Assembly (NCBI RefSeq): GCF_000012925.1
Contig: NC_007517.1
Coordinates: forward strand, 2,610,001-2,642,000
Length of the DNA stretch: 32,000 bases
Direction of reading: 5' to 3'
Source of the DNA: Geobacter metallireducens GS-15
Lineage (GTDB): Bacteria > Desulfobacterota > Desulfuromonadia > Geobacterales > Geobacteraceae
In this document: in pieces, positions 1 to 19,254 of the stretch
Layout: every line of letters begins with the position of its first letter
How positions within the stretch are numbered: the first letter of the stretch is position 1
The notes under the pieces: model-generated
Seen by the model: only the letters and a program-made list of their open reading frames with translations
What the model was told of the DNA's origin: nothing
Database searches by the model: none
Made by a program: the position numbers and the translations under genes

Positions 1-790
1 TGACGCCACCGACGAAGATACCGCTGTGGCAGCTGCCACACCCCAGCAGAGCTGTATGGATCTTATGGCTGAAGAATGCATCGCTTTTCGCGAAGGTCAC
101 ATCCCTGACAGCCGTATGACACCGGCCGCAGTCCCCCTTGACCGAGAAGGCGGTACTGCCGTTGTGACAACCGCCGCACGACTGCTGGGTCTCCATCTCC
201 AGCATGGTGTAGCGCTTGCTTTTGGGGCCGGCCACAAAGAGCTTGCTGTGGCAGTCGCCACAGACATGGCCGAATCCCAAGTGGGCAGCGTGGCTGAAGG
301 TGGCGTCGGCAGCAAAAGGGATATCCCGCACCGTGTGGCACTTGGTGCAGTCCCCCTTGACCGAGAAGGCGGTTTTGCCGTCGTGGCAGGCACCGCACGA
401 ACGTCCCCCTTCCATCTCCTTCATGGTAATGTGGGGGTTATCGGTACGGGCGCCGAAGATGGCGTTGTGGCAGTCGGCGCAACCGTAGGCGCCGAGCCCC
501 AGGTGGAATTTGTGACTAAAAATGACGGCGCCGAAATTGGGGATATCGACCGGCACCTCCTTTGTCACGTGGCAGCGGGTGCACTCGCCGAGGGCGAAGG
601 CTCGCTTCGCATTGTGGCAGGCGCCGCAGGACTTGCCCGCCTCCATCTCCTTCATGGTCACCGGCGCCGACTTGGTGCCGATCGTGAAGATCTTGTTGTG
701 GCAGAGGGTGCAGTTGTTGCCGAGGGCCTTCAGGTGGACGGGATGGCTGAAGTTAATGGCACCGGCGGTGTCGGTCTTGAAGGTAACAAC
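1..790 (-). repeat. Tandem in-frame coding repeats (c7 domain units, period 219-231 nt)
   Basis: The 24-nt string gtcccccttgaccgagaaggcggt occurs at 131 and 350, an offset of 219 nt (73 codons). The string gtggcagg occurs at 383 and 614, an offset of 231 nt (77 codons). The protein-level repeat FSVKGDC..CH is identical in units 2 and 3. Confidence 0.8.
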
Positions 791-862
791 CTGGTAATCC
801 TTGGCAAAGAGGAGCACCGGCAGAAGGAGGAGCAGCATGGCGGGAATGAACAGGCGTTTCAC
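1..862 (-). CDS. Multihaem c-type cytochrome, polymer of cytochrome c7-type trihaem domains (3' end beyond left edge of window)
   Basis: Not in the supplied ORF track because it runs off the window edge. Reverse-complement translation starts at GTG 862, with GGAG 7 nt upstream and an in-frame ATG at 838. It gives a signal peptide, VKRLFIPAMLLLLLPVLLFA, followed by 10 CXXCH haem motifs: CTLCH, CGACH, CTRCH, CADCH, CGACH, CTKCH, CGDCH, CGGCH, CGRCH, CGSCH. The motifs fall in repeated 73-77 aa units of the form FSH..H..C..CH...TM.EME.G.SCG.CH.G..AF....C..CH. This is the PpcA/c7 domain pattern known from Geobacter poly-c7 cytochromes such as GSU1996. There is no stop codon before position 1. Confidence 0.9.
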   Translation of the reverse strand, partial: MKRLFIPAMLLLLLPVLLFAKDYQVVTFKTDTAGAINFSHPVHLKALGNNCTLCHNKIFTIGTKSAPVTMKEMEAGKSCGACHNAKRAFALGECTRCHVTKEVPVDIPNFGAVIFSHKFHLGLGAYGCADCHNAIFGARTDNPHITMKEMEGGRSCGACHDGKTAFSVKGDCTKCHTVRDIPFAADATFSHAAHLGFGHVCGDCHSKLFVAGPKSKRYTMLEMETQQSCGGCHNGSTAFSVKGDCGRCHTAVRDVTFAKSDAFFSHKIHTALLGCGSCHSGIFVGGV

Positions 863-880
863 GGGAACTCCGAACAATTT

Positions 881-1264
881 TTAGCCGATTCGTAGCAATT
901 CCCTTGCCACGGCAAGGATTTTGCCGGCCTGAATCGGTTTCGTGAGATAGTCGTTGGCCCCGAGGGCAAGGCCGCGCTGGCGGTCCTCGGCAGCCCCCTC
1001 GGTGGTAATGATCACGACAGGGATGTGCCTCAGGGACGGATCGTTGCGGACAAGGCTCACGAGCTTCAGGCCATCCATGATCGGCATATTGATATCGGTA
1101 AATATCAAGTCAAAACTATCCCCTCCCAGCTTTTTCAGGGCATCAACGCCGTCGGTCGCCTCCACCAGCGCAACGCCAGGGAGCCGCCGCAGCGTGAAGG
1201 AGATAAGCTGCCGCATGGTGGGCGAGTCTTCTACGACAAGTATCCTCTTATCGGACATAGTCAT
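881..1264 (-). CDS. cheY: CheY-like single-domain response regulator (last che gene of the operon)
   Basis: Receiver motifs are present: ILVVEDS, FTDINMPIMDG, VVIITTEG, LTKP. The track ORF starts at TTG 1279. I prefer ATG 1264 or 1258, which sit downstream of a GGAG. The stop is TAA at 881-883. Confidence 0.9.
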   Translation of the reverse strand: MTMSDKRILVVEDSPTMRQLISFTLRRLPGVALVEATDGVDALKKLGGDSFDLIFTDINMPIMDGLKLVSLVRNDPSLRHIPVVIITTEGAAEDRQRGLALGANDYLTKPIQAGKILAVARELLRIG

Positions 1265-1283: not shown

Positions 1284-2117
1284 CTACTTCGTCAGGAGAT
1301 TGATGAATCCCTGCATGGTGGAGCGCTTGCGCTCCGAATCCGAGTAAAGCCTGGAACTGAATATGGCGGTTGCCGCATGGCCGGCAAGGAGTGTGAACAG
1401 TTCATAGTCCACCGGCACAAAGGCTTTTTTCTGGATCAGGAGCTTGTAAATGACGATGACTCCGATCACTTGATCCTTGATCTTGAGGGGTATGCAGACC
1501 ATGGGATTCGAGAGGTCTCGCACGTATCCCGCCGGATCCTCGAGGAAGTGGCTCTCGCCGGTAGCGGCGATGGCCCCGATGGTCCCCTCGCCGGGCCGCA
1601 CCTTCGGCACATCATCAAGGGAAATGCCCTCGGCGGCAACGGCGCCCAGCAGGCCGGCCTTCTCGTCGATGAGCATGACGGCGAATTCCTCGGCCCCGAT
1701 CAGGTTGATGATGATCTCGGTGATGACCTTGAGAACGTCATCAAAATCGAGAATGGAGTGGAGTTGGTAGCTGGCTATGTAGAGGTTTGCCAGATTGTTG
1801 TTTTCCTCTTCGATTTCCACATAGCGGGTGGCGAAATCATTGTTCTCAGCCTCAATCTGCCTGATGCGGCCGAGAATCTCGTCCTTCTCCCGCTCCAACT
1901 CCTCGATGCGGGCGGCGAGAAGCCGGTTTTCCTCGACAAGGGAAGCCGGAGCCCCTCCCTTGCGCTGGTGTTCCTCCAGCTGAAAAATCCGATATCGAAG
2001 CCGCTCGTTCTCCTTGAGGAGATCCTGGGTAAATTCCGCGCCCTTCTTGAAGAGCTGGAGGAATTCGTCGGCCCGCACATGCATCCCTTTTTCATCACTC
2101 TTGTCATCCATCGACAT
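1284..2117 (-). CDS. Coiled-coil plus GAF domain protein
   Basis: The N-terminal ~110 aa are heptad-rich (LKENERLRYRIFQLEE, IEELEREKDEILGRIRQIEAENN, IEEENNNLANLY). The C-terminal ~160 aa look GAF-like (ITEIIINLIGAEEFAVMLIDE...GEGTIGAIAATGES...VCIPLKIKDQVIGVIVIYKL). I place the start at ATG 2117 (GGGAG 6 nt upstream), because the track start at 2231 overlaps cheB. Confidence 0.8.
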   Translation of the reverse strand: MSMDDKSDEKGMHVRADEFLQLFKKGAEFTQDLLKENERLRYRIFQLEEHQRKGGAPASLVEENRLLAARIEELEREKDEILGRIRQIEAENNDFATRYVEIEEENNNLANLYIASYQLHSILDFDDVLKVITEIIINLIGAEEFAVMLIDEKAGLLGAVAAEGISLDDVPKVRPGEGTIGAIAATGESHFLEDPAGYVRDLSNPMVCIPLKIKDQVIGVIVIYKLLIQKKAFVPVDYELFTLLAGHAATAIFSSRLYSDSERKRSTMQGFINLLTK

Positions 2118-2181: not shown

Positions 2182-3264
2182 CTAATCAAGGTCGGTGGCC
2201 ACTCCGCAACGCATACGGATTTCCCGCGCAATCAGATCGAGGGGTACCACCTTATCAACCACACCCGTGGCGATGGCCTCCCTCGGCATTCCAAACACCA
2301 CTGCCGAACTCTCGGCTTCGGCAAGGGCTTGTCCTCCCGCGCCTTTGATGGCCCGCACCCCCCGGCTCCCATCGTTCCCCATGCCCGTAAGCACTACGCC
2401 AAGGGTCCGCGGTCCAAAGACTTCCGCACAGGAGGCAAGCATGGCGTCGACCGATGGGATGTAGCGATCCTCGGGAGATGGTTTGCGCACCCTCACCACC
2501 ACTGAGCCGGAACTCTTCTCGAACACCATGTTGTGGCCGCCGGGAGCAATCAGCACCCGCCCCGGCCACACCGTATCGCCGTCGGCCGCTTCCTTGACCT
2601 CGAAAACGGAGAGGCGGTTGAGGCGCTCCGCGAAGGTTCGCGTGAAACCGGCGGGCATGTGTTGAGAAATAACGATCGCCAGGGGAAGGGCCTCGCGGAA
2701 CGAAGAGAGAATCCGCTGGATGGCGGGGGGGCCGCCGGTGGAAGAACCGATGGCCACCACATCGAGACGGCACGGCACCACACGTCGCGGCTCCGCTTCC
2801 GCCTTTTTCGGGGCGACAGGAGGGGGAGCCAAAACCTCCACTTTCTCACGGCGGATGATCTCCTTCATGTTCAGGGAAAAGACGCCCCGCACCTTCTGCT
2901 GGATATCGTCGGTTATGGTAAGGAGTTCCTCGGAAATCCCCTGGCTCGGCTTGGCGACGAAATCGACCGCTCCCAGTTCAAGAGCCTTGAAGACCTTCTC
3001 GTCATCACTCTTGGCGCTGATCACAATGACCGGTGTCGGACAGTACCCCATGATGATCCGCAGGAGAGTGAAGCCGTCCATCTTGGGCATCTCGAGGTCA
3101 AGGGTCACGAGGTCGGGCTTCAGATCAATGACTTTTCTGATCCCCTCCTCGCCGTCGTTGGCGTATCCCGCCACCACCACCTCGGGCATGCTTTCAAGCA
3201 TTTTGATAATGGCCCGCCGGTTGAAGGCGGAATCGTCGATGACGACAACCCTGATTTTTCTCAT
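2182..3264 (-). CDS. cheB: Protein-glutamate methylesterase/glutaminase CheB (receiver + methylesterase)
   Basis: N-terminal receiver motifs [18 protein letters not shown]. Catalytic Ser/His/Asp contexts are present: [25 protein letters not shown]. The ATG at 3264 overlaps the cheR stop as ATGA. Confidence 0.95.
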
Positions 3265-4136
3265 AATCCACCCCCTGCCCCGCCCGGGAAGGGCTTCTGG
3301 TAGACCATGTCGTTCTTGAAGTGTTTAAGGGTGAAGGCCGTGGAGATATTCATGAGCGATTCGGAGTGACCCAGGAGGAGATATCCCCCTTCGTGCAGGG
3401 TCCGGTAAAAGGAGTCAATCACCTTCCGCCGTGCCAGCTGGTCGAAGTAGATGATGACGTTGCGGCAGTATATCACGTCCATGCAGCCCAGCAGCGCGAT
3501 GCGGTTCGCGTCGAGGAGGTTCAGGTGGCTTATGGTGACCAGTTCCCTCACCTTGTCGTTCACCCGGTACATTCCGTCCTGTTCGGTGAAGTAGCGACGG
3601 ATGTAGCTGTCGTCGGTCACCCGGAAGGAAGACTTGCCGTAGAGACCCTTGCGGGCCTGCTGAATCACCCGCTGACAGATGTCGGTGCCGATAATTTCCA
3701 CCTGCCAGCCGGCGAAACCGCCCATTTCCAGAAGGAGCATGGCGATTGTGTAAGGCTCTTCACCGCTGGAGCAGCCGGCGCTCCAGATGCGGAGCGTCCG
3801 GTCGCCGCTCTTCATTTTCATCGCGCGCAGAGCGGGAATGATCTCGTCGGTAAACGCCTTGAGCTGGAACGCCTCGCGGAAGAAGTAGGTCTCGTTGGTG
3901 GTGAGGAGATCCATGATATCCGAGAGTTCCTGGTCCCTGTTCCGGTTATACTTGAGGAAGTGGTAGTAGTCCCTGAACCCTGCGAAATGGTGAAACTGCA
4001 GACGCTTGGAGAGGCGCTTTTCCAGCAGGTAGGTTGCATCGCTATCAAAGTAGAGGCCACAATGATTGTAGATGAGATCCCGAATCAGGCGGAACTCCTC
4101 ATCGGATAGCGGTATTTCCGGTTCCAGGGTGAACAT
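3261..4136 (-). CDS. cheR: Chemotaxis protein methyltransferase CheR
   Basis: CheR N-terminal helical region ([25 protein letters not shown]) and SAM-binding region ([33 protein letters not shown]). ATG 4136 overlaps the upstream stop as TAATG and has GGAAGGTGG upstream. GTG 4145 is an alternative start. Confidence 0.93.
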
Positions 4137-6136
4137 TACCGCCACCTTCCGAGAAGGTCCCGGAGCTCACCCCGTACGAGTTCGTCCTGCTCGGCTTCCA
4201 GAGCCTTGCGCAGGTGCTCGGCCGCTCCCTCGCCGAGAAGATGCGCCATGGCACGGGCAGTGGCACACCGCACGTCCCAGTGGGGGTGTCGGAGAAGGCT
4301 GTCCCGGTACTCGTCAATCCAGGAGGAACCGCTGCGGGAGAGGATGTCGATGGCAGATTTCACCACCTCCTCGTCACTGCTCTCAAGGCCCCTTCTCACG
4401 AGCAGAAGTGCCCGGTCGTCCCCAAGACCGGCCAAGGCTTCGAGCGCAGTGATAAGCACGACCCCATCCGCCTTGCCCAACAGATCCTCGATGGCATCAA
4501 GCGCCCGCTCGCCGCCCATCTTGCCGAGGCTCCTGAGGGCAGCGCAGCGGACCCACGGATCTTCATCGTTGAGCGAAAGGATCAGAGAGTCCACGCTCCC
4601 CTCACCCTGCATCTCACCGAGTCCCGTAGCGGCGGCGATCCGCACATCAGGGTCCTCGTCCACCAGCGCCATGACCAGGTTCCCGAGGCATTCGGGAAGG
4701 CGCAGGCCCGCAAGAGCGGTCACAGCACTACGCCTCACAAGGGGGCTCTCATCCTTCACCAGAAGGGCAAGGCGCTCCGGATCGGCCAGAGCCGCGAATA
4801 TCCGCGCGGCATCCTGTCGGTTATCGGGGTTGGGCGACGTGGAAAGAGTCCTGGCGATGGCAGCCACCTTCTCCCGGCCGGTGGGGGCAAGACGCACAAG
4901 AGCATCCACGGCCCCCTTGCGCACGTCTTGCTCGCTGTCGTCAAGCAGCACTCGAATCTGATCCAGCAACCCGGTAAGGCCGATCTTACCTGCAGCCACC
5001 ACAGCGGCATTGCGGACCGAGTACCGGTTACTCGCCATGGCCTCGCCAAGATACGGCGCCGCACCACCAAAGCCCATTTCTCCCCACAGATAAATGATGA
5101 AGGTTTTTTCCTCATCATCGGCTTTGGAGAAAGCTGCAAGCAATGCGGCCATCCCACCCTCTCCCATAATCCGGAAACCCTGGAGACACGTGCGCCGAAG
5201 CCGCTCGTCGCGGCATCCCTCCAGAAGGGGCAGGGCCGCACGCTCATCACCGATAAGCGCCAGAATCCCCACAAGTGACTCTCTCACCTGCCGATCGGTG
5301 GTATCAAGGGATGCGATGAGATCATCCACGCACGGTTTCCCCCTGAAACCCGTGAGATGGTCATCAACCTCCCGTGCGTACACCGCGGGGAGTCTCCCCC
5401 TGAGGCGCGCCAGGGCGCAGGCCGCCGCTTCACGGACTGCCCGGACACGGTCCTGGAGCCCCTCCAGGATTACAGGTACGGCATCACGGTCTCCCACTGC
5501 GCCAAGGCACTCTATGACGGGACGCTTCAGGAGAGGATCCGCTACAAGGGGAGCAAACACCGGGATGGGAACCGGTTCCCCAATCCGGGTAAGGGCGCCG
5601 AGAACCGAAAAGCGGAACCAGACATCACCCGTTGCCAGGGCCTCAACCAGAGGCGCAACCGCGCGAGGGTCGCCGATCTTGCCGAGATTCTCCGCCGCTG
5701 CGGCAGAAACGTTGGCATCGGGATCCTGCAGTGCTTCCACGAGGGATGGGATGGATGAACGGTCGCCGATGCTGCCGAGGATGTCGGCGACAAATTTCCG
5801 TACGTCATGATCAGGGTCTTTGAGGTGGTCAAGGAGAAGCGGCACACTCCGGGATTCCAGGCGCTCCAGGGCCTCCACCGCCGAGTTCCGGAGCCCGGCG
5901 TTGTCGGAGGATGCAAGCAGGCCGATGAGCCCGTTCAGGGTTGAGTCATCAAGGGGCACGGTGAGAAGCGTGTTGACCGCCTCCTTGCGTACCCGCCAGC
6001 TCCCGTCCCCCATGGCTGAAAAAAAGAGTTCACGACTCCTGGCGAGAGGATGGCGACCCAGGCCGATGACGGCCTGTCGACGCTCCTCGTCGTCGGCACC
6101 AGTAAGTTGAGTACGTATGTGTTCAAGATCGCCCAC
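4136..6136 (-). CDS. Large HEAT-repeat (PBS-lyase HEAT-like) protein, about 666 aa
   Basis: About 18-19 iterations by eye of a ~31 aa unit of the type D.D..VR..A..AL..(I/L)G. Examples are DHDVRKFVADILGSIG, DPDVRIAAATGLGEMQG, DPWVRCAALRSLGKMGG, HWDVRCATARAMAHLLG. I saw no enzymatic motif. I prefer GTG 6136, which has AGGAG 7 nt upstream. The track start GTG 6175 lies in the loop of a hairpin. Confidence 0.85.
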   Translation of the reverse strand: MGDLEHIRTQLTGADDEERRQAVIGLGRHPLARSRELFFSAMGDGSWRVRKEAVNTLLTVPLDDSTLNGLIGLLASSDNAGLRNSAVEALERLESRSVPLLLDHLKDPDHDVRKFVADILGSIGDRSSIPSLVEALQDPDANVSAAAAENLGKIGDPRAVAPLVEALATGDVWFRFSVLGALTRIGEPVPIPVFAPLVADPLLKRPVIECLGAVGDRDAVPVILEGLQDRVRAVREAAACALARLRGRLPAVYAREVDDHLTGFRGKPCVDDLIASLDTTDRQVRESLVGILALIGDERAALPLLEGCRDERLRRTCLQGFRIMGEGGMAALLAAFSKADDEEKTFIIYLWGEMGFGGAAPYLGEAMASNRYSVRNAAVVAAGKIGLTGLLDQIRVLLDDSEQDVRKGAVDALVRLAPTGREKVAAIARTLSTSPNPDNRQDAARIFAALADPERLALLVKDESPLVRRSAVTALAGLRLPECLGNLVMALVDEDPDVRIAAATGLGEMQGEGSVDSLILSLNDEDPWVRCAALRSLGKMGGERALDAIEDLLGKADGVVLITALEALAGLGDDRALLLVRRGLESSDEEVVKSAIDILSRSGSSWIDEYRDSLLRHPHWDVRCATARAMAHLLGEGAAEHLRKALEAEQDELVRGELRDLLGRWR

Positions 6137-6166
6137 TGACGGTCTCCTTGTCGAACTGTCAGGATT

Positions 6167-6183
6167 CCCGCACACACTGCGGG
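6167..6183 (-). other. Intercistronic hairpin between cheW and the HEAT-repeat gene
   Basis: On the minus strand: CCCGCA-GTGTG-TGCGGG, a 6-bp stem with a 5-nt loop. No U-tract follows, so it is not a typical terminator. It may be a processing or stability element. Confidence 0.3.
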
Positions 6184-6201
6184 TATCCTCTTTTTCCGGA
6201 A

Positions 6202-6699
6202 TTATCGGGCGGGAGTTGCGCCCGATGCCCGTGAGAAGCCGGCGAGAGCCGATGTTTCACGGCTGTTCAGAATAGTGTCAAGATTGAGAAGCATGATGAG
6301 GCTGTCGCGGACAAGACAGACGCCGATCAGGTACTCGGTGCTGATCCCCTCGGCCACATGGGGAGGGGGCTTGATGTCATGGGCTTGGACCGTAACGACC
6401 TCGGTGACGTCGTCCACGACGAGCCCCACGAGTTGGCGGGACACGGTTACCACCAAAAGCCGTGATTCCTCCAGCGGAGCGCGTTCAGGAAGCTCGAACC
6501 GCTTGCGCAGATCCATAACCGGAATGACCGTGCCGCGAAGATTGATTACCCCTTCCACAAAGGACGGTGTCCTGGGTAGCTTCGTCAGGTGCTGAGGCTT
6601 GAGGATTTCCTTGATCCTCATGATGTCAGCGGCAAAATTCGCATCACCCAGACGGAAACAGGCAAGCTGAATTTCCTGGATGTCGGTTTCCATCATCAT
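6202..6699 (-). CDS. cheW: Chemotaxis coupling protein CheW
   Basis: A single CheW domain: LACFRLGDANFAADIMRIKEI, PSFVEGVINLRGTVIPVMDLRKRF, VGLVVDDVTEVV. AGGGGGG lies upstream of an ATGATGATG start. Confidence 0.93.
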   Translation of the reverse strand: MMMETDIQEIQLACFRLGDANFAADIMRIKEILKPQHLTKLPRTPSFVEGVINLRGTVIPVMDLRKRFELPERAPLEESRLLVVTVSRQLVGLVVDDVTEVVTVQAHDIKPPPHVAEGISTEYLIGVCLVRDSLIMLLNLDTILNSRETSALAGFSRASGATPAR

Positions 6700-6747: not shown

Positions 6748-7119
6748 TTAAGGAGAGAGGAGATCCTGAATTATCTCAATGATCTTTGCCGACTTGAACG
6801 GTTTGGTGACGTAGGCCGACGCGCCCGCCGCCATCCCTCGCGCGCAGTCCTGCTCGCTCTTCTTGGCCGTAAGCATCACGACGGGAGTGTGTGCCGTTTC
6901 GGGATTCTGCTTGATGCGCCGGCAGACCTCAAAGCCATCTATCTCCGGAAGCATGATGTCGAGGATGACCAGATCGGGCCTGGTCAAGCCGACCTGTTCA
7001 AGGGCGGCCACCCCGTCGGTGGCACCCACCACTTCATACCCCCTGGACGTGAGGAGAATGCTTTCAAGCTTGAGAAGGCTTTCCTCATCCTCGACGATCA
7101 GAATTTTTTTCTTCGTCAT
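6748..7119 (-). CDS. Stand-alone response regulator receiver protein (non-CheY-like subtype)
   Basis: Receiver motifs KILIVEDE, LVILDIMLPEIDG, PVVMLTAK, YVTKPF. ATG 7119 has AAAGGG 7 nt upstream. The track start ATG 7140 has no SD and remains an alternative. Confidence 0.88.
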   Translation of the reverse strand: MTKKKILIVEDEESLLKLESILLTSRGYEVVGATDGVAALEQVGLTRPDLVILDIMLPEIDGFEVCRRIKQNPETAHTPVVMLTAKKSEQDCARGMAAGASAYVTKPFKSAKIIEIIQDLLSP

Positions 7120-7157: not shown

Positions 7158-7874
7158 TCAGAGCAGCAACACGTCAAGAACCTTTTCCATTGCGAGCATA
7201 ATGACGATCTTTCCGTCATGGCGTCCGATACCGGAGACAAATTCACGATCTATGCCATCGAGAACCGCAGGGGGCTGTTCCACGGTGTCTGCAGCAATCC
7301 GAACCACCTGGGTCACCTCGTCCACAAGAATACCACAGAGACCATCACCTTTCTTCACCACGATGATGCGCTCTTTCCCTCCCCCTTCTTCCCGGCACAG
7401 GCCAAGGCGCTCCCGGAGGGCGAATACGGGGATAATGATGCCGCGCAACGAGAGCACACCGGCGATGAAGGGGGGTGCATGGGGAACCTCCGTTGTCTCC
7501 CGGGGCTTGATGATCTCCTTCAGTTCCATGATGTCGATGCCGTAAATCTCGTCGGCAACCCTGAAGCAAAGAATTTCGAGGGAAGACGAAGCTTGGACCG
7601 GGAGGTCGGCATCGTCTTCAACAGGGAGAACCTCATCAACAAGGGCAGACTTCCGCCCTTCGAGGATAACGGTCAAGGGGTCGCGAACAACCGGCGGAGC
7701 AAAGCTGGCCTGGATGATCTCATCCTGGGGAAAGGACTCGTCATAGTGGCCATCATCGGTCTCCTCCAGCGGAGGAGCGGAGGGGGTAACCGGTGATTGC
7801 GCAGCCTGGGGTTCCTCGCGTCGCCCTTCGCGTTCCCTTTGGGCCTTTTTCCTGATTTCGGCTATATCCATCAT
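7158..7874 (-). CDS. CheW-domain protein with ~95 aa acidic/Pro-rich N-terminal extension
   Basis: C-terminal CheW domain: ILCFRVADEIYGIDIMELKEI, PPFIAGVLSLRGIIIPVFALRERL, CGILVDEVTQVV. I place the start at ATGATG 7874, with AAGGA upstream. The track start at 8120 overlaps the upstream ATPase gene. Confidence 0.85.
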   Translation of the reverse strand: MMDIAEIRKKAQREREGRREEPQAAQSPVTPSAPPLEETDDGHYDESFPQDEIIQASFAPPVVRDPLTVILEGRKSALVDEVLPVEDDADLPVQASSSLEILCFRVADEIYGIDIMELKEIIKPRETTEVPHAPPFIAGVLSLRGIIIPVFALRERLGLCREEGGGKERIIVVKKGDGLCGILVDEVTQVVRIAADTVEQPPAVLDGIDREFVSGIGRHDGKIVIMLAMEKVLDVLLL

Positions 7875-7893: not shown

Positions 7894-8697
7894 TCAGTAG
7901 AGGCTCGCTTCGTCACGCAACTCTTCCACCAGCGATGCATCGATCCAGGCAGAGTCCTTCCCGAACCCCACCAACAGCGCATTGGTCGCCAGGATGTTGA
8001 TCTTGCGCGGCACCCCGCCCGACAACTCGTAAATCCTCCGGATGGCATCCGGAGAGAAGAGCCCCTGGGGTCCGCCGGCCACCTCCACCCGGAAGTCCAC
8101 ATACTCGAGGGTTTCCTCAAGGCTCAGGGGCTGGAGGTGGTAGTGCATGGCAATCCGCTGCCGCAGGGCTTCATGGGCCGGCTCGGACAGTATCTGCCGC
8201 AGCTCCGGCTGCCCCATGAGAATAACACTCATGAGGTTGCGGTCGTCCAGCTGAAAGTTGGTCAGGAGCCTGATCTCGTCGAACACCTCCTGGTCGGGGA
8301 TCAGCTGGGCCTCGTCAATGATGATGACCGGGCAGCGCTTCTCCCCCTCGAGCCGGTAAACCGCCTCGGTGAGCTGCCGCAGGAGTTCGTCCTTGGCCGC
8401 GGCCGGCTCAGCGATGCCGAGACTGCGGGCCACCGTGCGGAGGAATTCCACGGCCGAGAGTCGCGGGTTGACGATGAAACAGAAACAGCCGTCATTCCCC
8501 ACGGCGTCCATGAGCGCCCGGGAGATGGTGGTCTTGCCGCAGCCGATGTCGCCAGTGAGGAGCGCCAGTTCCCGCTCCTCCACCGCATACTGGAGCCGTG
8601 CCAGGGCTTCCCGGTGTCCCCGCGACAGAAAGAGGTAGCGCGGGTCCGGGGTCTTCGAGAACGGCTTTTCGGTCAGACCGTAGAACTCCCTGTACAT
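7894..8697 (-). CDS. ExeA/GspA/MshM-like AAA+ ATPase (AAA_22-type)
   Basis: N-terminus MYREFYGLTEKPFSKTPDPRYLF is typical of ExeA-like proteins. Walker A is GDIGCGKTT and Walker B is VIIIDEAQ. GQPEL and GGVPRKIN motifs are also present. The ATG at 8697 directly abuts the cheA stop (TAG|ATG, zero gap). Confidence 0.85.
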   Translation of the reverse strand: MYREFYGLTEKPFSKTPDPRYLFLSRGHREALARLQYAVEERELALLTGDIGCGKTTISRALMDAVGNDGCFCFIVNPRLSAVEFLRTVARSLGIAEPAAAKDELLRQLTEAVYRLEGEKRCPVIIIDEAQLIPDQEVFDEIRLLTNFQLDDRNLMSVILMGQPELRQILSEPAHEALRQRIAMHYHLQPLSLEETLEYVDFRVEVAGGPQGLFSPDAIRRIYELSGGVPRKINILATNALLVGFGKDSAWIDASLVEELRDEASLY

Positions 8698-10770
8698 CTA
8701 CCCTCCGCTCCGGAACGCCTCGCCGATGATCCCCCCCACGTCGAGCACGAGGATCGTCCGCTGGTCCCCCAGGTCCGCCGCTCCGGTGATCCCCCGGTAC
8801 CCCTTGAACATGTCCCCCAGGGATTTGATGACAATATCCTGCTGCCCCATGAGATCGTCGACAATGACCCCGAGCCGTTTCTCCGCCACCCCCACCACCA
8901 CCACGTAGAACTCGGCGGAATCCGGTTTTGTGCGCGGGACGCCGAAAAAGCGCTCCAGCCGCACGAGCGGCAGGGTCGTTTGCCTGAGCTGGTAGACCTC
9001 CTTGCGCTCCACGGTATCGATGTCATTCTCGGTGACGATGATCGTTTCAAGCACCGACGTGATCGGGAGGGCGTAGGTGCGCCCGGCGGTGGAAACCAGC
9101 AGCGCCTTGATGATGGCCAGGGTGATGGGAAGGGTGATGATGACCTTGCTCCCCTGGCCGAAGATGCTCTCGATGTCCACCATCCCCGAGACGGCGGCGA
9201 TGTTGTTTTTCACCACATCCATGCCGACGCCGCGGCCCGACAGCTCGCTCACCTTGTCGGCGGTGGAAAAGCCGGGGAGAAAGATGAAATCGAGGGCCTC
9301 CCGGTCGGATACCCCTTCCAAGGTCTTGATGAGCCCCTTTTCCAGGGCCTTCTTCTTCACCTTTTCGATATTGAACCCGTGCCCGTCGTCCGACACTTCG
9401 ATGACGACGTGGTTTCCCTTCTGGTAGGAGGAGAGACGGATGGTTCCCCGCTCGGGCTTGCCGGCGGCCACCCGCTCTTCCGTGGTCTCCAGTCCATGGT
9501 CGATGGCGTTGCGGATGATGTGAACCATGGGGTCGGCGATATCCTCGATGATGAGCTTGTCCAGCTCAGTGTCCGCGCCAAAGGTCTTGAGGTCGACCTT
9601 TTTCCCCTGTTCCCGGGAGACCTTCCGGACAATGCGGGCCATCTTCTCGAAAAGTTGCCCAACCGGGATCATCCGGATCTCCATGACCCCCTTCTGCAGT
9701 TCCGTGAGCTTGCGGTCGAGCCCCTTGGCCGCCTTGCCCAGCTCGATGGCCAGGGACGAGAACCCTTCGAGTCTCATGCGTGTCGCCAGCATCGAGATGA
9801 TGGAATGGGAGAGGACCAGCTCGCCCACGATGTTCATGAGATCGTCCAGCTTGCCGATGTCGACCCGCACCGTCCGGCTCATGCTCTTGGCGGTCATGTC
9901 GTCGCCCTGGCCGACAGGAGCGGAGACCTCTGCCGGAGCCGAAGTCGGAACCGACGCCTGCGCTGTAGCGGGGATTGCCACGGCAACACCGGCCGCGATG
10001 GCCGAGGGTGGAGAGGCAGCCGCACCGATCCGGGTGACCTCGACATTATCCCGGTCAATGAGTCCGGTAACATCATCAAGCGCGAGGTCGGTGCCGTAGA
10101 GGATCTCGAAGTCGATCATCGACTCGGGAGTGGCACTGGCACTGGGGAGAGTACTCACCACCTCTCCAGACTTCTTCAGGACTTCCGTGATCTCCCCCAG
10201 ATCCTGATCGAAGGACATGAGGTTGAAGGAGGCATGGATGGAGTAAATGGTCCGCCCCTTCTTCACATTCTCCAGCAGCCGGTGTTCCTCGTATTCGGTG
10301 AGGGAGTTGAGGACCTTCTCCGGCAGGCCGAGCTTCTGGAGGGGTGACTCGCCGCCACTCTCCTGGGCTGTGGCGCAGTCATTGAGCCGCTGAATCGCGT
10401 CGGCAATGGCGGAAGAGAAGTTTTCTCCGGTGCCGAGCCCCCGCACCACGGAACCGAGAAGTTCCATGGCATCGAAGAGGATGTTCATGGTGGCATTGGT
10501 GAGGGGTATTTTGCCGAGGCGAAGTGAATCGAGAAGGTTTTCCAGGTTATGGGAGAGCTGCTGGATGTCGGCGAAACCGAACATGCCGGCGAGCCCCTTG
10601 AGGGAGTGGGCGCCGCGGAAAATGGCATTGAGCAGGTCCGGATCACACTCCCCGCTGTCGGCGCAGTCGCCGAGGGTTCCCAAGTCGGTGCTCAGTCGAT
10701 CGACAATCTCTTCGGCTTCGGCCAGGAAGTCTTCCACGGCCCTGCCGGACGTATCATTTGAATTTGCCAT
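8698..10770 (-). CDS. cheA: Chemotaxis histidine kinase CheA (P1 HPt, dimerisation, HATPase, CheW-like P5; no fused receiver)
   Basis: HPt motif FRGAHSLKGLAGMFG. Dimerisation region RVDIGKLDDLMNIVGELV. ATPase boxes HIIRNAIDHG, VSDDGHGF, GRGVGMDVV. The C-terminal P5 region has ADLGDQRTILVLDV. Confidence 0.95.
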   Translation of the reverse strand: MANSNDTSGRAVEDFLAEAEEIVDRLSTDLGTLGDCADSGECDPDLLNAIFRGAHSLKGLAGMFGFADIQQLSHNLENLLDSLRLGKIPLTNATMNILFDAMELLGSVVRGLGTGENFSSAIADAIQRLNDCATAQESGGESPLQKLGLPEKVLNSLTEYEEHRLLENVKKGRTIYSIHASFNLMSFDQDLGEITEVLKKSGEVVSTLPSASATPESMIDFEILYGTDLALDDVTGLIDRDNVEVTRIGAAASPPSAIAAGVAVAIPATAQASVPTSAPAEVSAPVGQGDDMTAKSMSRTVRVDIGKLDDLMNIVGELVLSHSIISMLATRMRLEGFSSLAIELGKAAKGLDRKLTELQKGVMEIRMIPVGQLFEKMARIVRKVSREQGKKVDLKTFGADTELDKLIIEDIADPMVHIIRNAIDHGLETTEERVAAGKPERGTIRLSSYQKGNHVVIEVSDDGHGFNIEKVKKKALEKGLIKTLEGVSDREALDFIFLPGFSTADKVSELSGRGVGMDVVKNNIAAVSGMVDIESIFGQGSKVIITLPITLAIIKALLVSTAGRTYALPITSVLETIIVTENDIDTVERKEVYQLRQTTLPLVRLERFFGVPRTKPDSAEFYVVVVGVAEKRLGVIVDDLMGQQDIVIKSLGDMFKGYRGITGAADLGDQRTILVLDVGGIIGEAFRSGG

Positions 10771-10779
10771 GGATAACCC

Positions 10780-11145
10780 TCAGGCCGTGTACTGTTTGAT
10801 CAACTCCTGCAAACGCGCCGGATCGAACGGCTTCACCAGATATTCGTTGGCACCGAGAGCGAGCCCCTTTTCCCGGTCACGCTCGCTCCCTTCGGTGGAT
10901 ATGATGAAGAGTGGGATATGGCGGTAATTTTCACTTCCACGGACAAAGCTCACAAGCTCAAGCCCGTTGATGTCGGGCATATTGATATCGGTTATGATCA
11001 GGTCAACGGGTTCCCGAGGCAGAAGCCGAAGGGCTTCGAACCCGCTCGCCGCCTCGGAAACCAGATATCCGCCGAGGGACTCGATGGTCGCCACCAGAAG
11101 GGACCGCATGGTCGACGAGTCTTCCGCTATAAGGATTTTCTTCAC
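10780..11145 (-). CDS. cheY: CheY-like single-domain response regulator
   Basis: Receiver motifs ILIAEDS, ITDINMPDINGLE, FIISTEG, LVKPF. The GTG start at 11145 overlaps the upstream stop as GTGA. Confidence 0.92.
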   Translation of the reverse strand: MKKILIAEDSSTMRSLLVATIESLGGYLVSEAASGFEALRLLPREPVDLIITDINMPDINGLELVSFVRGSENYRHIPLFIISTEGSERDREKGLALGANEYLVKPFDPARLQELIKQYTA

Positions 11146-12326
11146 GTTACACTCCGAAGTTTACTTTCCAGCAGCGCTTTTTCCATGACCAGCCCGGCTT
11201 GGGACAGAAAAATCTCCAGGGCCTCCGTCCCGACGATTGGCCTGCGCTCGGCCTGATTGTCACCGTAGAGGACAGCGATCACCTCTCCACCACTTACGAT
11301 CGGCCCGAGGAAAACCTCGTGGGGAATCTCCACGCCGATACGGCCGAACAGATAACGATTCCATTCATTCGCTTCGGGACGGACCACTGCCGGGTGTTTC
11401 GCTTCAATAACCCCGCTGAACAGCGATGGCTCTCCTCTCGGTATGCGGAGCGACCTGATCCGCTCGTCGGCACCGCCTCCGCGGTCGTCGAGGCCAAACT
11501 GACCGAGCCCCACAACCTCTTCCTTCAGTACCCTGAAGATTACCGCCCGGTCCATGAACTCCGCGGCAAGCCGCAGGACCAGCAGGGTAATGCCGCATCC
11601 CAGCTCGGGATTGTGCAGCTCTTCGAGCATCCCCCGCAACAGGGTCATCCGGTCAGCGTGGCTGTAACCCTCCTCACCGGTCTTTGCCAGCTCCTCTCCC
11701 ATTTCGAGACGAAGCTCCTCACCGATGTTGATGTGCCCCGGCGGCGGCGCAGGCACCACGGTACGCCCTTCAGGAGGCTGGGGAACCCGGAGGGGCTCCT
11801 CATCCCGGGGAATATCCCTTCTGCGGCGGTCCTGGTTCGCCTCCGCCATCAGGAGCCGGGGATTGAGCCCCTGTTCCAGCATGAACTGGAGGGGATCCAT
11901 CCTGATGGTGCCGGCAGTGGCCACGTTGTCCTGGAGAATGAATTCGAATGTCCCTTCCACCCAGGCAAAGAGCGTATAGACTACCCGCTCCACCTGCTCC
12001 CGGGCCACATCTTCGACAACGGTGGCAGGCACGCCGAATCGTCGCACCAGGATCGATCCGAGCCGTTCCTGGAATCCCTCGCTTTCCTGGCATGCAAGGG
12101 CTGACCGCAGGGTTGCGAGATCGAGCTTCCCCTTGCGGATCAGGACCTCGCCGATATTCTCCAGGAGGGTGCTGGAGGTGGCCTGGATCACCTGACCGAG
12201 ACGGAAGACGATGGTCCCTTCACGCCCCCGGCTCTTGATCCGCAGAATCCCCGACTTTGATGAAAGGCTGATGATCTGTAAGATCTCACCCAGCCCCAGA
12301 TCTTCAAGACTCCCGACAAGGCTCAT
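11142..12326 (-). CDS. DUF4388 (PATAN-like) N-terminal domain protein with C-terminal GAF-like domain
   Basis: The N-terminus SLVGSLEDLGLGEILQIISLSSKSGILRIKSRGREGTIVFRLGQV matches my memory of the DUF4388/PATAN signature. A Pro/Arg-rich linker follows. The C-terminal ~150 aa look GAF-like (ITLLVLRLAAEFMDRAVIFRV...GGEVIAVLYGDN). This is the first gene of the che-like operon. Confidence 0.75.
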   Translation of the reverse strand: MSLVGSLEDLGLGEILQIISLSSKSGILRIKSRGREGTIVFRLGQVIQATSSTLLENIGEVLIRKGKLDLATLRSALACQESEGFQERLGSILVRRFGVPATVVEDVAREQVERVVYTLFAWVEGTFEFILQDNVATAGTIRMDPLQFMLEQGLNPRLLMAEANQDRRRRDIPRDEEPLRVPQPPEGRTVVPAPPPGHINIGEELRLEMGEELAKTGEEGYSHADRMTLLRGMLEELHNPELGCGITLLVLRLAAEFMDRAVIFRVLKEEVVGLGQFGLDDRGGGADERIRSLRIPRGEPSLFSGVIEAKHPAVVRPEANEWNRYLFGRIGVEIPHEVFLGPIVSGGEVIAVLYGDNQAERRPIVGTEALEIFLSQAGLVMEKALLESKLRSVT

Positions 12327-12374: not shown

Positions 12375-12404
12375 ATCATAAACTACTCGTCCGGTTCAAG
12401 TAAA
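12375..12404 (-). promoter_or_regulatory. Candidate sigma70-type promoter for the che-like operon
   Basis: On the minus strand: TTTACT (12404-12399), an 18-nt spacer, then TATGAT (12380-12375), about 50 nt upstream of the ATG at 12326. The -35 is a weak match, and readthrough from der is equally possible. Confidence 0.25.
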
Positions 12405-16527: not shown

Positions 16528-16563
16528 TCAGCTTTTACAAAATGGAAGGGCAATGCAACCCCC

Positions 16564-17217
16564 ATGGGTTTTTTCATCACATTCGAAGGAATCGAGGGAT
16601 GCGGCAAGTCGACCCAGGTCCGACTGGTCGCCGAACGGCTCAGCCGGGCCGGCCACGGGGTGGTGGTGACCCGCGAACCGGGAGGATGCCCCATCGCCGA
16701 CGCCATCAGGGCAATTCTTCTGGACGCCCGCAACAGCGCCATGGTGCCCATGGCCGAACTCCTCCTCTACGCGGCGGCCCGGGCCCAGCACGTGGCGGAG
16801 GTGATCGAACCGGCCCTGGCAGCGGGGAAGATCGTCCTCTGCGATCGCTTCACCGACTCCACCATGGCCTACCAGGGATTCGGCCGCAAGCTGGACCGGG
16901 AACTGATTGCCCAGCTCAACAGCCTGGCCGCCGGCAGCATCAGACCGGATCTGACCCTCCTTCTGGACTGTTCCGTGGAGACGGGGCTCGCCCGGGCCAT
17001 GGCCCGGATCAACACAAGCAGCGCGGCCCGGGAGGAGCGGTTCGAGCAGGAGTCCATCCTCTTCCACGAGCGGATCAGGGACGGCTTCCTCTCCCTCGCC
17101 GCTGCCGAACCGGGGCGGTTCGTGGTTCTGGACGGCAGTGGCGGCATCGAAGAGACCGAGGCCCTCGTGACGGAGGCGATCCTTGCCCGCCTTCCCGCAT
17201 CCCCTGCAAGGAGGTAG
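16564..17217 (+). CDS. tmk: Thymidylate kinase
   Basis: The protein begins MGFFITFEGIEGCGKSTQ (P-loop). DRF and LID-region motifs are present. I place the start at ATG 16564, because the track start at 16405 lies inside the rnc coding region and promoter region. Confidence 0.95.
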   Translation: MGFFITFEGIEGCGKSTQVRLVAERLSRAGHGVVVTREPGGCPIADAIRAILLDARNSAMVPMAELLLYAAARAQHVAEVIEPALAAGKIVLCDRFTDSTMAYQGFGRKLDRELIAQLNSLAAGSIRPDLTLLLDCSVETGLARAMARINTSSAAREERFEQESILFHERIRDGFLSLAAAEPGRFVVLDGSGGIEETEALVTEAILARLPASPARR

Positions 17218-17220
17218 GCG

Positions 17221-18177
17221 GTGCCCTTCTCCCGCGTCATTGGCCAGGATACCCCCGTCAACGTTCTGCGGCGTGCGCTTCGCTCCGGCAAGACGGCCCA
17301 TGCCTACCTGTTCGAGGGAATCGGGGGATGCGGCAAGGGAACCACGGCTCTCGCTTTTGTGGAGGCTGCCTTCTGCGGCCGGGATGATGGGTGCGGCACC
17401 TGCCCCTCCTGCCGGAAGATGGCGACGCTGCAGCACCCCGATCTCCACCCGGTGGAACCCGACGGGGCGTTCATCAAGATAGACCAGGTCCGGGAACTCC
17501 AGCGGGAACTGGTGCTTCGCCCCATCGAGGCGCCGCTCAAGGCATGCATCATCAGGGATGCGGACCGGCTCAATCCGGCAGCAGGCAACGCCCTCCTGAA
17601 GACCCTGGAGGAACCGCCGGGCAATGCCCTGATGATCCTCCTCACCACGAACCTGGACGGGGTCCTTCCCACGATCCGCTCCCGCTGCCAGCTCCTGCGC
17701 TTTGCGCCCCTTCCCGAGGAGCTCATCGAGGAGCGACTGGTGGCAGCCGGACGGGACCGGGCCGCAGCACGCCTTGCCGCATCCCTTGCGGGTGGAAGCC
17801 TGGGGAAAGCCCTTGGGGATGAGGAAGCGGACACGGTGGACCGGCAAGCGCTCCTGGAACGGCTCAGGACCCTCTCCCTCAGCGACACGGCCTCCCTCTT
17901 CGCCGCTGCCGAAGAGATGGCCGCCAACCGCGAACAGGCCCTGAAGCAGTTGGACGTGCTCGCGTCGCTTCTGCGCGACATCCTCCTCATCCAGGGGGGG
18001 AGCGATGCCGTGGTCAACCGCGACATCATGCCATTTCTGGAAAGCGAGGCGGCGCGCCTGTCGCGGGAAAAGAATCTCGAACGAATAAGCAACACCATGG
18101 AGGCCCGCCAGGCCCTCATGCGCAACGCCAACCCGCGGCTCACCCTCGACGTGCTCCTGATGCGTCTGGCGGGGTAA
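17221..18177 (+). CDS. holB: DNA polymerase III delta-prime subunit
   Basis: HAYLFEGIGGCGKGTTA (degenerate P-loop), zinc module CGTCPSCRK, and LLKTLEEPP and SRCQ motifs. The GTG start has AAGGAGG 6 nt upstream. Confidence 0.9.
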   Translation: MPFSRVIGQDTPVNVLRRALRSGKTAHAYLFEGIGGCGKGTTALAFVEAAFCGRDDGCGTCPSCRKMATLQHPDLHPVEPDGAFIKIDQVRELQRELVLRPIEAPLKACIIRDADRLNPAAGNALLKTLEEPPGNALMILLTTNLDGVLPTIRSRCQLLRFAPLPEELIEERLVAAGRDRAAARLAASLAGGSLGKALGDEEADTVDRQALLERLRTLSLSDTASLFAAAEEMAANREQALKQLDVLASLLRDILLIQGGSDAVVNRDIMPFLESEAARLSREKNLERISNTMEARQALMRNANPRLTLDVLLMRLAG

Positions 18178-18207
18178 ACGCCGCTTGTATTTTTTTCGGA
18201 GGACAAC

Positions 18208-19254
18208 TTGGTAAAGATTGTGAAGGCCCAGTTCCACACCGCCGGCAAACTCTACGACTTCGGGGCGGGCGATCTCGACCTCAAGCCGGGAGACAAGATC
18301 ATCGTCGAGACAGAGCGGGGGCGGAGCATCGCCACCGTCGTCACCCCCCCCCGGGAATACGAAGAGGCCCATGTACCCGAAGGGCTCAAGACCGCCATCC
18401 GGATCGCCGAACCGTCGGATCTCGCCTCGGCTGCCCGCAACGACGCCCGGGAGCAGGAAGCCCACGCGTTCTGCCTCCGCAAGATCAAGGAGCGGGGGAT
18501 GGAGATGAAACTCGTCAAGGTGGAATACCTTTTTGACGGGAGCAAGGCCATCTTCTACTTCACCGCCGACGGGCGGGTCGATTTCCGGGAACTGGTCAAG
18601 GATCTGGCCCATCAGTTCCACACCCGCATCGAGATGCGTCAGATCGGCGTCCGTGACGAATCGAAGATGATAGGCGGCATCGGCATCTGCGGGCGAGAAC
18701 TCTGCTGTTCGTCGTTTTTGCGCGAGTTCGAGCCCGTATCGGTCAAAATGGCCAAGGAGCAGAACCTGGCCCTCAACCCCACGAAAATCTCCGGACAGTG
18801 CGGCCGACTCCTCTGCTGTCTCGGCTACGAGTACGAGACCTACTGCTCCCTCAAGAAATGCCTTCCCAAATGCGGTAAAGTTGTGAAGTGCGGCAGCACC
18901 GAAGGGGAAGTCATCAAGCAGAACATCATCGAGGGGACCGTCTTCGTCAAGACCGACGACGACCGGATTGTAGAGCTCAAGGGGGAGAGCATCAAGCCCG
19001 AGGACATCTCGGAGCGCCCCAAGTCCCCACGCCGGGAGGGTGGCACTAGGGAGAGGGAGAAGGAACCGCAAAGCTCTTCCGACAATCAGCGGCGGGAAAA
19101 ACCCCGGGACCGTGAGCAGAAACCGGGAGACGACGGCGAGCAGCGCCGGGAGCGCGATACTAAAAAGAACCAGGACCAGCAGCGCGGAGAACGCGGCAAC
19201 CGTGATCGACGCGGCGGCAAAGGCAGGGACAAGGATAAAAAGGAGCCGAAATGA
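18208..19254 (+). CDS. PSP1 domain protein (YaaT/RicT-like) with long Arg/Glu/Asp/Lys-rich C-terminal tail
   Basis: PSP1 core (FYFTADGRVDFRELVKDLA) and Cys-rich motifs ICGRELCCSSFL and GQCGRLLCCLGYE. TTG start after GGAGGA. The order tmk-holB-PSP1 matches the Bacillus tmk...holB-ricT arrangement. Confidence 0.88.
   Translation: MVKIVKAQFHTAGKLYDFGAGDLDLKPGDKIIVETERGRSIATVVTPPREYEEAHVPEGLKTAIRIAEPSDLASAARNDAREQEAHAFCLRKIKERGMEMKLVKVEYLFDGSKAIFYFTADGRVDFRELVKDLAHQFHTRIEMRQIGVRDESKMIGGIGICGRELCCSSFLREFEPVSVKMAKEQNLALNPTKISGQCGRLLCCLGYEYETYCSLKKCLPKCGKVVKCGSTEGEVIKQNIIEGTVFVKTDDDRIVELKGESIKPEDISERPKSPRREGGTREREKEPQSSSDNQRREKPRDREQKPGDDGEQRRERDTKKNQDQQRGERGNRDRRGGKGRDKDKKEPK

Follow-up and report, generated by a model that had tools for sequence, protein, structure and literature searches.

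Organisation of the locus

We analysed a stretch of 32,000 nucleotides (nt) of the Geobacter metallireducens GS-15 genome (NC_007517.1, positions 2,610,001 to 2,642,000; hereafter, the window), at whose left end a minus-strand gene for a multihaem cytochrome follows a cluster of chemotaxis-like (che) genes. The cytochrome gene is the last of a block of 13 genes on the same strand, whose products are, in order, a DUF4388 protein, a response regulator, CheA, an AAA ATPase, CheW, CheY, another CheW, a HEAT-repeat protein, CheR, CheB, a GAF-domain protein, another CheY and the cytochrome (Table 1). No methyl-accepting chemotaxis protein (MCP) domain was found by the Pfam scan of the cluster proteins.

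A preliminary description of the left end of the window, made from the sequence alone, had proposed here a minus-strand gene coding for a signal peptide and at least 10 CXXCH motifs, arranged in three c7-type units and the start of a fourth, and both translation and Pfam agree with it. Precisely, the minus-strand frame running from position 862 to position 1 comprises 287 codons, has a GTG start and is free of stops. Translated from the GTG at 862 it opens with VKRLFIPAMLLLLLPVLLFAKDY, followed by exactly 10 CXXCH motifs, enough for three full trihaem units and the opening motif of another (3 1/3 c7-type units). The N-terminus, VKRLFIPAMLLLLLPVLLFA followed by KDY, has a KR n-region, a hydrophobic core and LFA preceding the cleavage site, in a Sec-type layout; the same signal-peptide layout (MKRLFIPAMLLLLLPVLLFA before KDY), as read from the sequence, lacks a lipobox Cys. 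From this N-terminal layout the product is predicted to be a Sec-exported cytochrome that is not a lipoprotein. The fragment matched Pfam Cytochrome_C7 (PF14522) in three stretches (E = 8.4e-63) and the structure of GSU1996 (PDB 3OV0; E = 9.9e-70).

The gene is missing from the program-made list of open reading frames (ORFs) only because the lister reports no ORF that is cut by a window edge. What the list holds for this region is a 289-aa ORF on the opposite strand, which had been called a shadow of the cytochrome gene; in agreement with this, it had no Pfam match.

A 27-haem protein of nine c7 domains

The complete gene was read from the G. metallireducens RCH3 contig AGJM01000048.1 (locus L004), which we found by exact-sequence look-up of the CheB protein and which had 0 mismatches to the window over the 3264 nt compared. 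As had been proposed, the gene continues beyond the left window edge, in this case by about 1.27 kb, and its product is a cytochrome of 709 aa with 27 CXXCH motifs in nine GSU1996-type domains. The identical protein is annotated in GS-15 as ABB32526.1, also WP_004514497.1, under the name 'cytochrome c / cytochrome c3 family protein'. A homology search with the 287-aa window fragment returned only paralogues with 12–18 haems (36–60% identity), the true orthologues being missed by the word-based candidate step, and these were recovered by exact-sequence look-up and by a full-length search.

The nine units are 72–81 residues long, show 40–59% mutual identity and share the pattern [F]-S-H-x-x-H ... 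CxxCH ... T-M-x-E-M ... S-C-G-x-C-H ... CxxCH, so that every domain combines three CXXCH motifs with two distal His (FSHxxH) and with one conserved Met at the position of the ligand of a His-Met haem. In GSU1996 the Met at that position is the axial ligand of the His-Met haem, and it sets these domains apart from the PpcA-type c7 (PMC10138318). Met209 of 3OV0 aligns with the TM of the TMxEM motif, and, at the level of sequence, this Met is kept in 9/9 units; the full protein matches 3OV0_A with E = 1.6e-121. The GSU1996-type poly-c7 identity given in the preliminary description was thus borne out. Both Pfam and the unit analysis found nothing other than the nine c7 domains, with no MCP, PAS or transmembrane signalling module. 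The computed mass is about 74 kDa for the mature apoprotein and about 90 kDa with 27 haems.

The gene therefore has the features of a poly-c7 protein (c7-type domains in tandem, each about 72–81 aa long and with three CXXCH) and those of the group of G. sulfurreducens GSU2210 (709 aa, where about 710 aa are expected, and exactly 27 CXXCH). To GSU2210 itself it has 72% identity over 707 aa, without gaps. We regard its identity as a GSU2210 orthologue, and its architecture as a nine-domain, 27-haem poly-c7 cytochrome, as practically certain.

Most orthologues (loci L009–L083) begin with GTG or TTG and few with ATG, so that a weak start is kept consistently; in the window it is the GTG at 860..862. 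A start of this type may keep low the translation of a protein that is very costly to make.

Relation to the G. sulfurreducens Esn cluster

In the G. sulfurreducens PCA locus (L089, AE017180.2) the order of the genes is response regulator, CheA, AAA ATPase, CheW, CheY, CheW, zinc-ribbon response regulator, HEAT, CheR, CheB, GAF, CheY, a 33-aa ORF, a 711-aa cytochrome, leuS, lptE and holA. From gene order and published names, these include GSU2222 (esnC), GSU2220 (esnB), GSU2212 (cheY40H-4) and GSU2210. On the evidence of gene order and of protein identity (79% for CheA and 58% for CheW), the cluster of the window is identified as the orthologue of the GSU2212–2224 'Esn' che-like cluster. It is probably also the 'beta-group' che cluster of Tran et al. 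2008, an assignment made by elimination, because it has neither an HD-domain gene nor an mcp gene.

For the beta-group cluster, preliminary evidence of an effect on the extracellular matrix was given by Tran et al. 2008 (PMC2577667), in whose text the word 'cytochrome' occurs zero times. According to Chan et al. 2017 (PMC5585712), deletions of esnB and esnC impair growth on electrodes and not the reduction of Fe(III) oxide, and EsnA, the MCP partner of the cluster in G. sulfurreducens, is described there as having no putative periplasmic domain. GSU2210 has been named, with its 27 haems, among three periplasmic 'nanowire' cytochromes of G. sulfurreducens, and GSU1996 has been proposed as a capacitor (PMC10138318). 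The GSU2210 protein is known from proteomics (PMC9248073), and Table 1 of that paper gives it no literature annotation for extracellular electron transfer. In the searchable literature we found no discussion of the cytochrome as last gene of this che cluster, nor of the conservation of this arrangement across a clade.

The cheY–cytochrome junction

The stop codon of the terminal cheY (TAA, 883..881) is separated from the GTG of the cytochrome gene (862..860) by exactly 18 nt (880..863), in which a GGAG at 871..868 is followed by a spacer of 5 nt. The preliminary description had reported this distance, the GGAG and the lack of a terminator hairpin, and all three hold: besides the coordinates, the terminator scans gave no terminator-like site at the junction, and the fold of 840..930 was no better than that of shuffled sequence (z = +0.10). 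In the comparison of Geobacter sensu stricto sequences the spacer is not conserved, save for the ribosome-binding site (RBS) block CGGAGTTCCCGTG. The scan for sigma-70 promoters found nothing near the junction; its sole match (12404..12375) precedes the DUF4388 gene with which the block opens, and is a candidate start for all 13 genes.

Outside the window, about 40 nt beyond the stop codon of the cytochrome gene (L004 4637..4680), our own scan and RNAfold found a hairpin GCCGGCC-N18-GGCCGGC followed by GTTTTT. The stricter built-in terminator scan missed it because its stem is interrupted. Five Geobacter sensu stricto loci (L004, L007, L008, L009 and L012) share the hairpin upstream of leuS, even in its loop sequence, and it could be either the terminator of the che operon or a leader element of leuS. 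Desulfuromonadales loci with no cytochrome have, at the same place before leuS, a hairpin with a CCGGC stem and a T-run, which suggests that the cytochrome gene was inserted upstream of a pre-existing operon end. A scan of the window and of L004 against Rfam, at the gathering threshold, gave no match, and hence both the junction and the hairpin after the gene lie outside the known RNA families.

Because a gap of 18 nt is too small for a terminator, and because a hairpin with a T-run is present after the cytochrome stop, we infer read-through from cheY, so that the two genes are probably co-transcribed. No transcription-start data for the locus were found in the literature.

Conservation of the arrangement

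As conservation sample we considered 80 species-level loci of GTDB genomes, fetched with the highly conserved GAF protein as anchor, of which 77 were informative and 3 were not. Nearly all 80 loci retain the order GAF–cheY–leuS–lptE; in six there is no cheY match or, as in L015, leuS directly follows the GAF gene. A c7-type cytochrome was present between cheY and leuS in 21 of the 80 loci (21/77 informative), and 18 of these 21 copies are complete, each with exactly 27 CXXCH. The other three are a 6-haem version, a version split into 8 + 17 motifs and a copy cut at the contig end. The 6-haem protein, of two domains, occupies the cheY–leuS slot of a Geobacteraceae metagenome-assembled genome (MAG; L010 4356..4895), and the ORFs with 8 and 17 motifs, in Geotalea toluenoxydans (L018 11318..13503), are the result of a frameshift or an assembly error.

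In a neighbour-joining tree of LeuS the 27-haem loci fall together in a single group, nearly monophyletic, which consists of Geobacter sensu stricto, Geomobilimonas, Geoanaerobacter and related MAGs. The cytochrome is absent from the Geomonas/Citrifermentans clade, from the Desulfuromonadales clade and from another Geobacteraceae clade, a distribution by which the tree favours a single gain. In Pelotalea chapellei and a Desulfuromonadaceae MAG (L093 3904..7166; L094 3899..7163) the GAF gene and the terminal cheY are missing and the order is cheB, 27-haem gene, leuS, with a gap of about 35–42 nt after cheB. The full-length search gave 111 homologues of 690–745 aa, and 111/111 had exactly 27 CXXCH. 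Among more distant metagenomic relatives there are also proteins of up to 962 aa with 30 and 36 CXXCH, that is, 10 and 12 c7 domains (the proteins of the 27-haem set and of the distant relatives are P0242–P0354 and P0275, P0356, P0358, P0361, P0363 and P0365).

We also checked poly-c7 paralogues with 12 and 18 haems (L090, L091 and L092). They follow a pair made of a multihaem cytochrome gene and a Ni_hydr_CYTB (cytochrome b) gene, in a Cbc-like respiratory context, and therefore the che context is specific to the 27-haem orthologous group, within whose clade it is stable. One of these paralogue loci has a sigma-54 activator response regulator upstream.

Coordinates and neighbouring genes

Table 1. 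Features of the window considered in this work, in window coordinates
Feature	Position	Strand	Remark
5' part (287 codons) of the gene for the 27-haem poly-c7 cytochrome (GSU2210 orthologue; ABB32526.1 / WP_004514497.1)	1..862	-	Predicted signal peptide, domains A–C, start of domain D
Spurious 289-aa ORF (shadow of the cytochrome gene)	26..895	+	In ORF list; no Pfam match
Intergenic spacer with Shine-Dalgarno GGAG	863..880	-	RBS block CGGAGTTCCCGTG kept in most Geobacter sensu stricto sequences
Terminal CheY-type response regulator, 125 aa (cheY40H-4 / GSU2212 orthologue)	881..1258	-	Domain match and identical contig
Sigma-54-like -24/-12 motif TGGCAAGGGAATTGCT, candidate internal promoter	894..909	-	Within the 3' end of cheY; 31 nt from the end of the motif to the cytochrome GTG
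Coiled-coil and GAF domain protein, 277 aa (GSU2213 orthologue)	1284..2117	-	
CheB methylesterase with receiver domain	2182..3264	-	
CheR methyltransferase	3261..4136	-	
HEAT-repeat protein, 666 aa	4136..6136	-	
CheW	6202..6696	-	
CheY-type response regulator	6748..7119	-	
CheW with N-terminal extension	7158..7874	-	58% identity to GSU2220 (EsnB)
AAA_22 ATPase (GSU2221 orthologue)	7894..8697	-	
CheA histidine kinase	8698..10770	-	79% identity to GSU2222 (EsnC)
Response regulator receiver protein	10780..11145	-	
DUF4388/PatA_N protein, first gene of the same-strand cluster	11142..12326	-	
Sigma-70-like promoter match TTTACT-18-TATGAT	12375..12404	-	84-nt gap between der (engA) and the DUF4388 gene; consensus match only

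The part of the window from 21.8 to 32 kb is ordinary housekeeping, all on the minus strand, with genes for a RidA-like protein, RelA/SpoT, guanylate kinase, YicC, two sugar epimerases, a heptosyltransferase, a DegT aminotransferase, a PglD-like acetyltransferase and a GT8 glycosyltransferase.

Weighing of the explanations

The explanation that we prefer, with a probability of about 0.6 for the whole of it, is that the gene is the GSU2210 orthologue, standing last in an Esn-type block, expressed by read-through from cheY and coding for a periplasmic carrier or store of electrons. A number of observations weigh against it. The gap of 18 nt is peculiar to G. metallireducens, the relatives having 5–115 nt, as in G. 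hydrogenophilus (89 nt, L007 11238..11326, in spite of a GAF protein that is 98% identical) and G. sulfurreducens (94 nt, L089 11240..11333), and in such longer spacers there is room for a promoter. In some lineages the gap between the cytochrome gene and leuS is 21–41 nt and the terminator is absent. In 56 loci leuS directly follows cheY (in L015, the GAF gene) and the che cluster is kept with no cytochrome, which implies that in most relatives the cluster functions without it; no remnants of the gene were found in the loci that lack it, and therefore gain and clean loss are not directly separable. Distant homologues (40–44% identity; 27, 30 or 36 haems) sit far from che genes. Synteny is itself weak evidence of function, because the equally stable adjacency of che and leuS, kept in all loci, joins genes that are functionally unrelated. 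GSU2210 is neither mentioned in the available part of Chan et al. 2017 (PMC5585712) nor named there among the hits for electrode growth by transposon sequencing, the full table of which lies outside that part. Lastly, a sigma-54-like motif lies within cheY, 31 nt upstream of the cytochrome start.

This motif is the basis of a tentative alternative, in which the cytochrome would be expressed mainly from an RpoN (sigma-54) -24/-12 promoter in the last codons of cheY (909..894) and its position would be a historical accident, one insertion kept by synteny with no tie to Che. In fact, TGGCAAGGGAATTGCT is the only match to TGGCA-N6-TTGCW in the 32 kb on both strands (expected 0.06), and it resembles the RpoN consensus of G. 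sulfurreducens, TTGGCACGGTTTTTGCT (PMC2725144). Six Geobacter sensu stricto genomes keep it, their substitutions numbering one or two at most and sparing the GG and GC dinucleotides. Of the degenerate codons in the motif, the three that are fully conserved (GCA, GAA and TTG) are identical in 6/6, against 14/66 in the whole of cheY; GCA and TTG are uncommon codons. The start predicted from the motif would leave a leader of about 20 nt with the GGAG, and both the many che clusters with no cytochrome and the distant homologues standing alone elsewhere suit an accidental position. However, the peptide V-A-R/K-x-L-L by itself yields TGGC...CTGCT, and the motif scores 9–10/12 also in loci without the cytochrome while being degraded to 6–9/12 in many loci with it. 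Since it fails to separate the two kinds of loci, we kept it only as an alternative. There is, moreover, no gene for an enhancer-binding protein nearby, GSU2209–2213 do not appear in the RpoN-regulon supplements of PMC2725144 (a study of non-coding regions only), and an internal promoter would be compatible with additional read-through. As regards the co-transcription stated in the preliminary description, then, the common strand, the 18-nt gap, the missing terminator and the hairpin after the cytochrome speak for it, the species-specific gap and the motif in cheY speak against it, and the claim stands as plausible only.

A functional alternative goes further, and we consider it improbable: the 27-haem protein would report periplasmic redox state or acceptor availability to the Esn-type pathway, or would be its regulated output, so that through it the che system would sense, or control, extracellular electron transfer. 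It draws on the position of the gene as the last of a cluster whose CheA and CheW orthologues are needed for growth on electrodes and not for Fe(III) oxide reduction (PMC5585712), on an adjacency that persists with a different upstream gene (cheB in Pelotalea), and on the Cbc-like surroundings of the other poly-c7 paralogues, which leave the che context to the 27-haem orthologue. The protein, on the other hand, has no MCP, PAS or transmembrane signalling module, EsnA is described as without a putative periplasmic domain (PMC5585712), 56/77 of the related che clusters lack the cytochrome, and GSU2210 is not reported as an electrode-growth gene in the available part of that paper. The remaining alternative, that the plus-strand ORF at 26..895 is a real gene and the CXXCH pattern of the minus strand a product of chance, has a negligible probability, even if this ORF is the sole long one listed for the stretch: it has no Pfam match, whereas the minus-strand frame matches Cytochrome_C7 (E = 8.4e-63) and equals exactly an annotated protein, and comparably long shadow ORFs are found elsewhere in this G+C-rich window. 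Two longer ones, with no family match, are at 16528..19071 (847 aa) and 19086..20429 (447 aa) on the minus strand, opposite the real plus-strand genes tmk, holB, metG and one for a PSP1-domain protein, so the artefact is typical of the window.

Interpretation

In the explanation that we prefer, the gene would be transcribed at least in part by read-through from cheY and translated from its own GGAG and its weak GTG start. The product would be a long soluble chain of 27 closely spaced haems in the periplasm, able to take up, store and hand on electrons, as proposed for GSU1996 (PMC10138318). Its placement at the end of the operon might give co-expression with the chemosensory pathway that governs electrode colonisation in G. 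sulfurreducens, and the cytochrome may be an accessory acquired once in the Geobacter/Geomobilimonas/Geoanaerobacter lineage rather than a core part of the signalling system.

GSU1996, with 12 haems, is about 12 nm long, and nine domains could span about 25–30 nm, a length comparable to the width of the periplasm. The count of 27 never varies, which is compatible with selection on protein length. It is a speculative step from here, and a doubtful one, to regard the cytochrome as a lineage-specific working part of the Esn-type system, namely an electron store of periplasm length, with 27 haems tuned to the periplasm width, whose abundance is set together with the colonisation pathway or read by it.

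The preliminary description had seen in this arrangement an unusual coupling, hinting that the Che-like system is tied to electron transfer, and had proposed to look for the linkage in relatives. The adjacency is real, being kept in 21/77 loci and in one clade; the 56 loci with no cytochrome limit its weight, and a link of the cluster to electron transfer is not new, given that esnB and esnC (GSU2220 and GSU2222) were already known. That the signalling system has control over electron transfer does not follow from the placement, and we consider the functional link a modest, testable hypothesis. The gene, its product family, the 27-haem orthologue, the che cluster and the genetic link of this cluster to electrode respiration are all already annotated or published, so that the finding alone adds no new gene, family, mechanism or kind of system and is to be taken as a useful, testable lead. 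Its value is in joining proteins of the GSU2210 type, among the largest single-chain haem wires in Geobacter, to a cluster that is genetically tied to growth on electrodes, and the junction of che and cytochrome, kept across a whole clade with an invariant number of 27 haems, is the basis for a cheap and specific experiment.

Comparison with known systems

GSU2210 and the Esn cluster are among the closest known systems. Like the window gene, GSU2210 codes for a predicted signal peptide and nine c7-type domains with 27 CXXCH, has the same RBS and a GTG start, and lies between cheY40H-4 (GSU2212) and leuS, the order cheY–cytochrome–leuS–lptE–holA being common to both species. The Esn cluster (with GSU2220, esnB, and GSU2222, esnC) has the same order as the window, including the AAA ATPase, HEAT, CheR, CheB, GAF and CheY genes, and in both the mcp gene is absent. 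The two loci differ in the gap between cheY and the cytochrome gene, which is 18 nt in G. metallireducens and 94 nt in G. sulfurreducens, where the 33-aa ORF is called, and in an additional zinc-ribbon response regulator of 316 aa (L089 4993..5943) between cheW and the HEAT gene of G. sulfurreducens, which G. metallireducens does not have (6136..6202).

As for the protein, the dodecahaem poly-c7 cytochromes GSU1996 and GSU0592 (PDB 3OV0, 3OUE, 3OUQ and 1RWJ) have the same type of domain, with one conserved Met in each (PMC10138318). They are periplasmic and have been proposed to act as an electron store or 'nanowire', the role proposed here for the window cytochrome, but they consist of four domains with 12 haems instead of nine domains with 27. 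The trihaem c7 cytochromes of the PpcA family resemble the window cytochrome in the c7 fold unit and in how the three CXXCH are spaced (PF14522); they are, however, single domains in which all haems are bis-His (PMC10138318), whereas the window cytochrome is made of nine fused domains, each with a Met at the ligand position.

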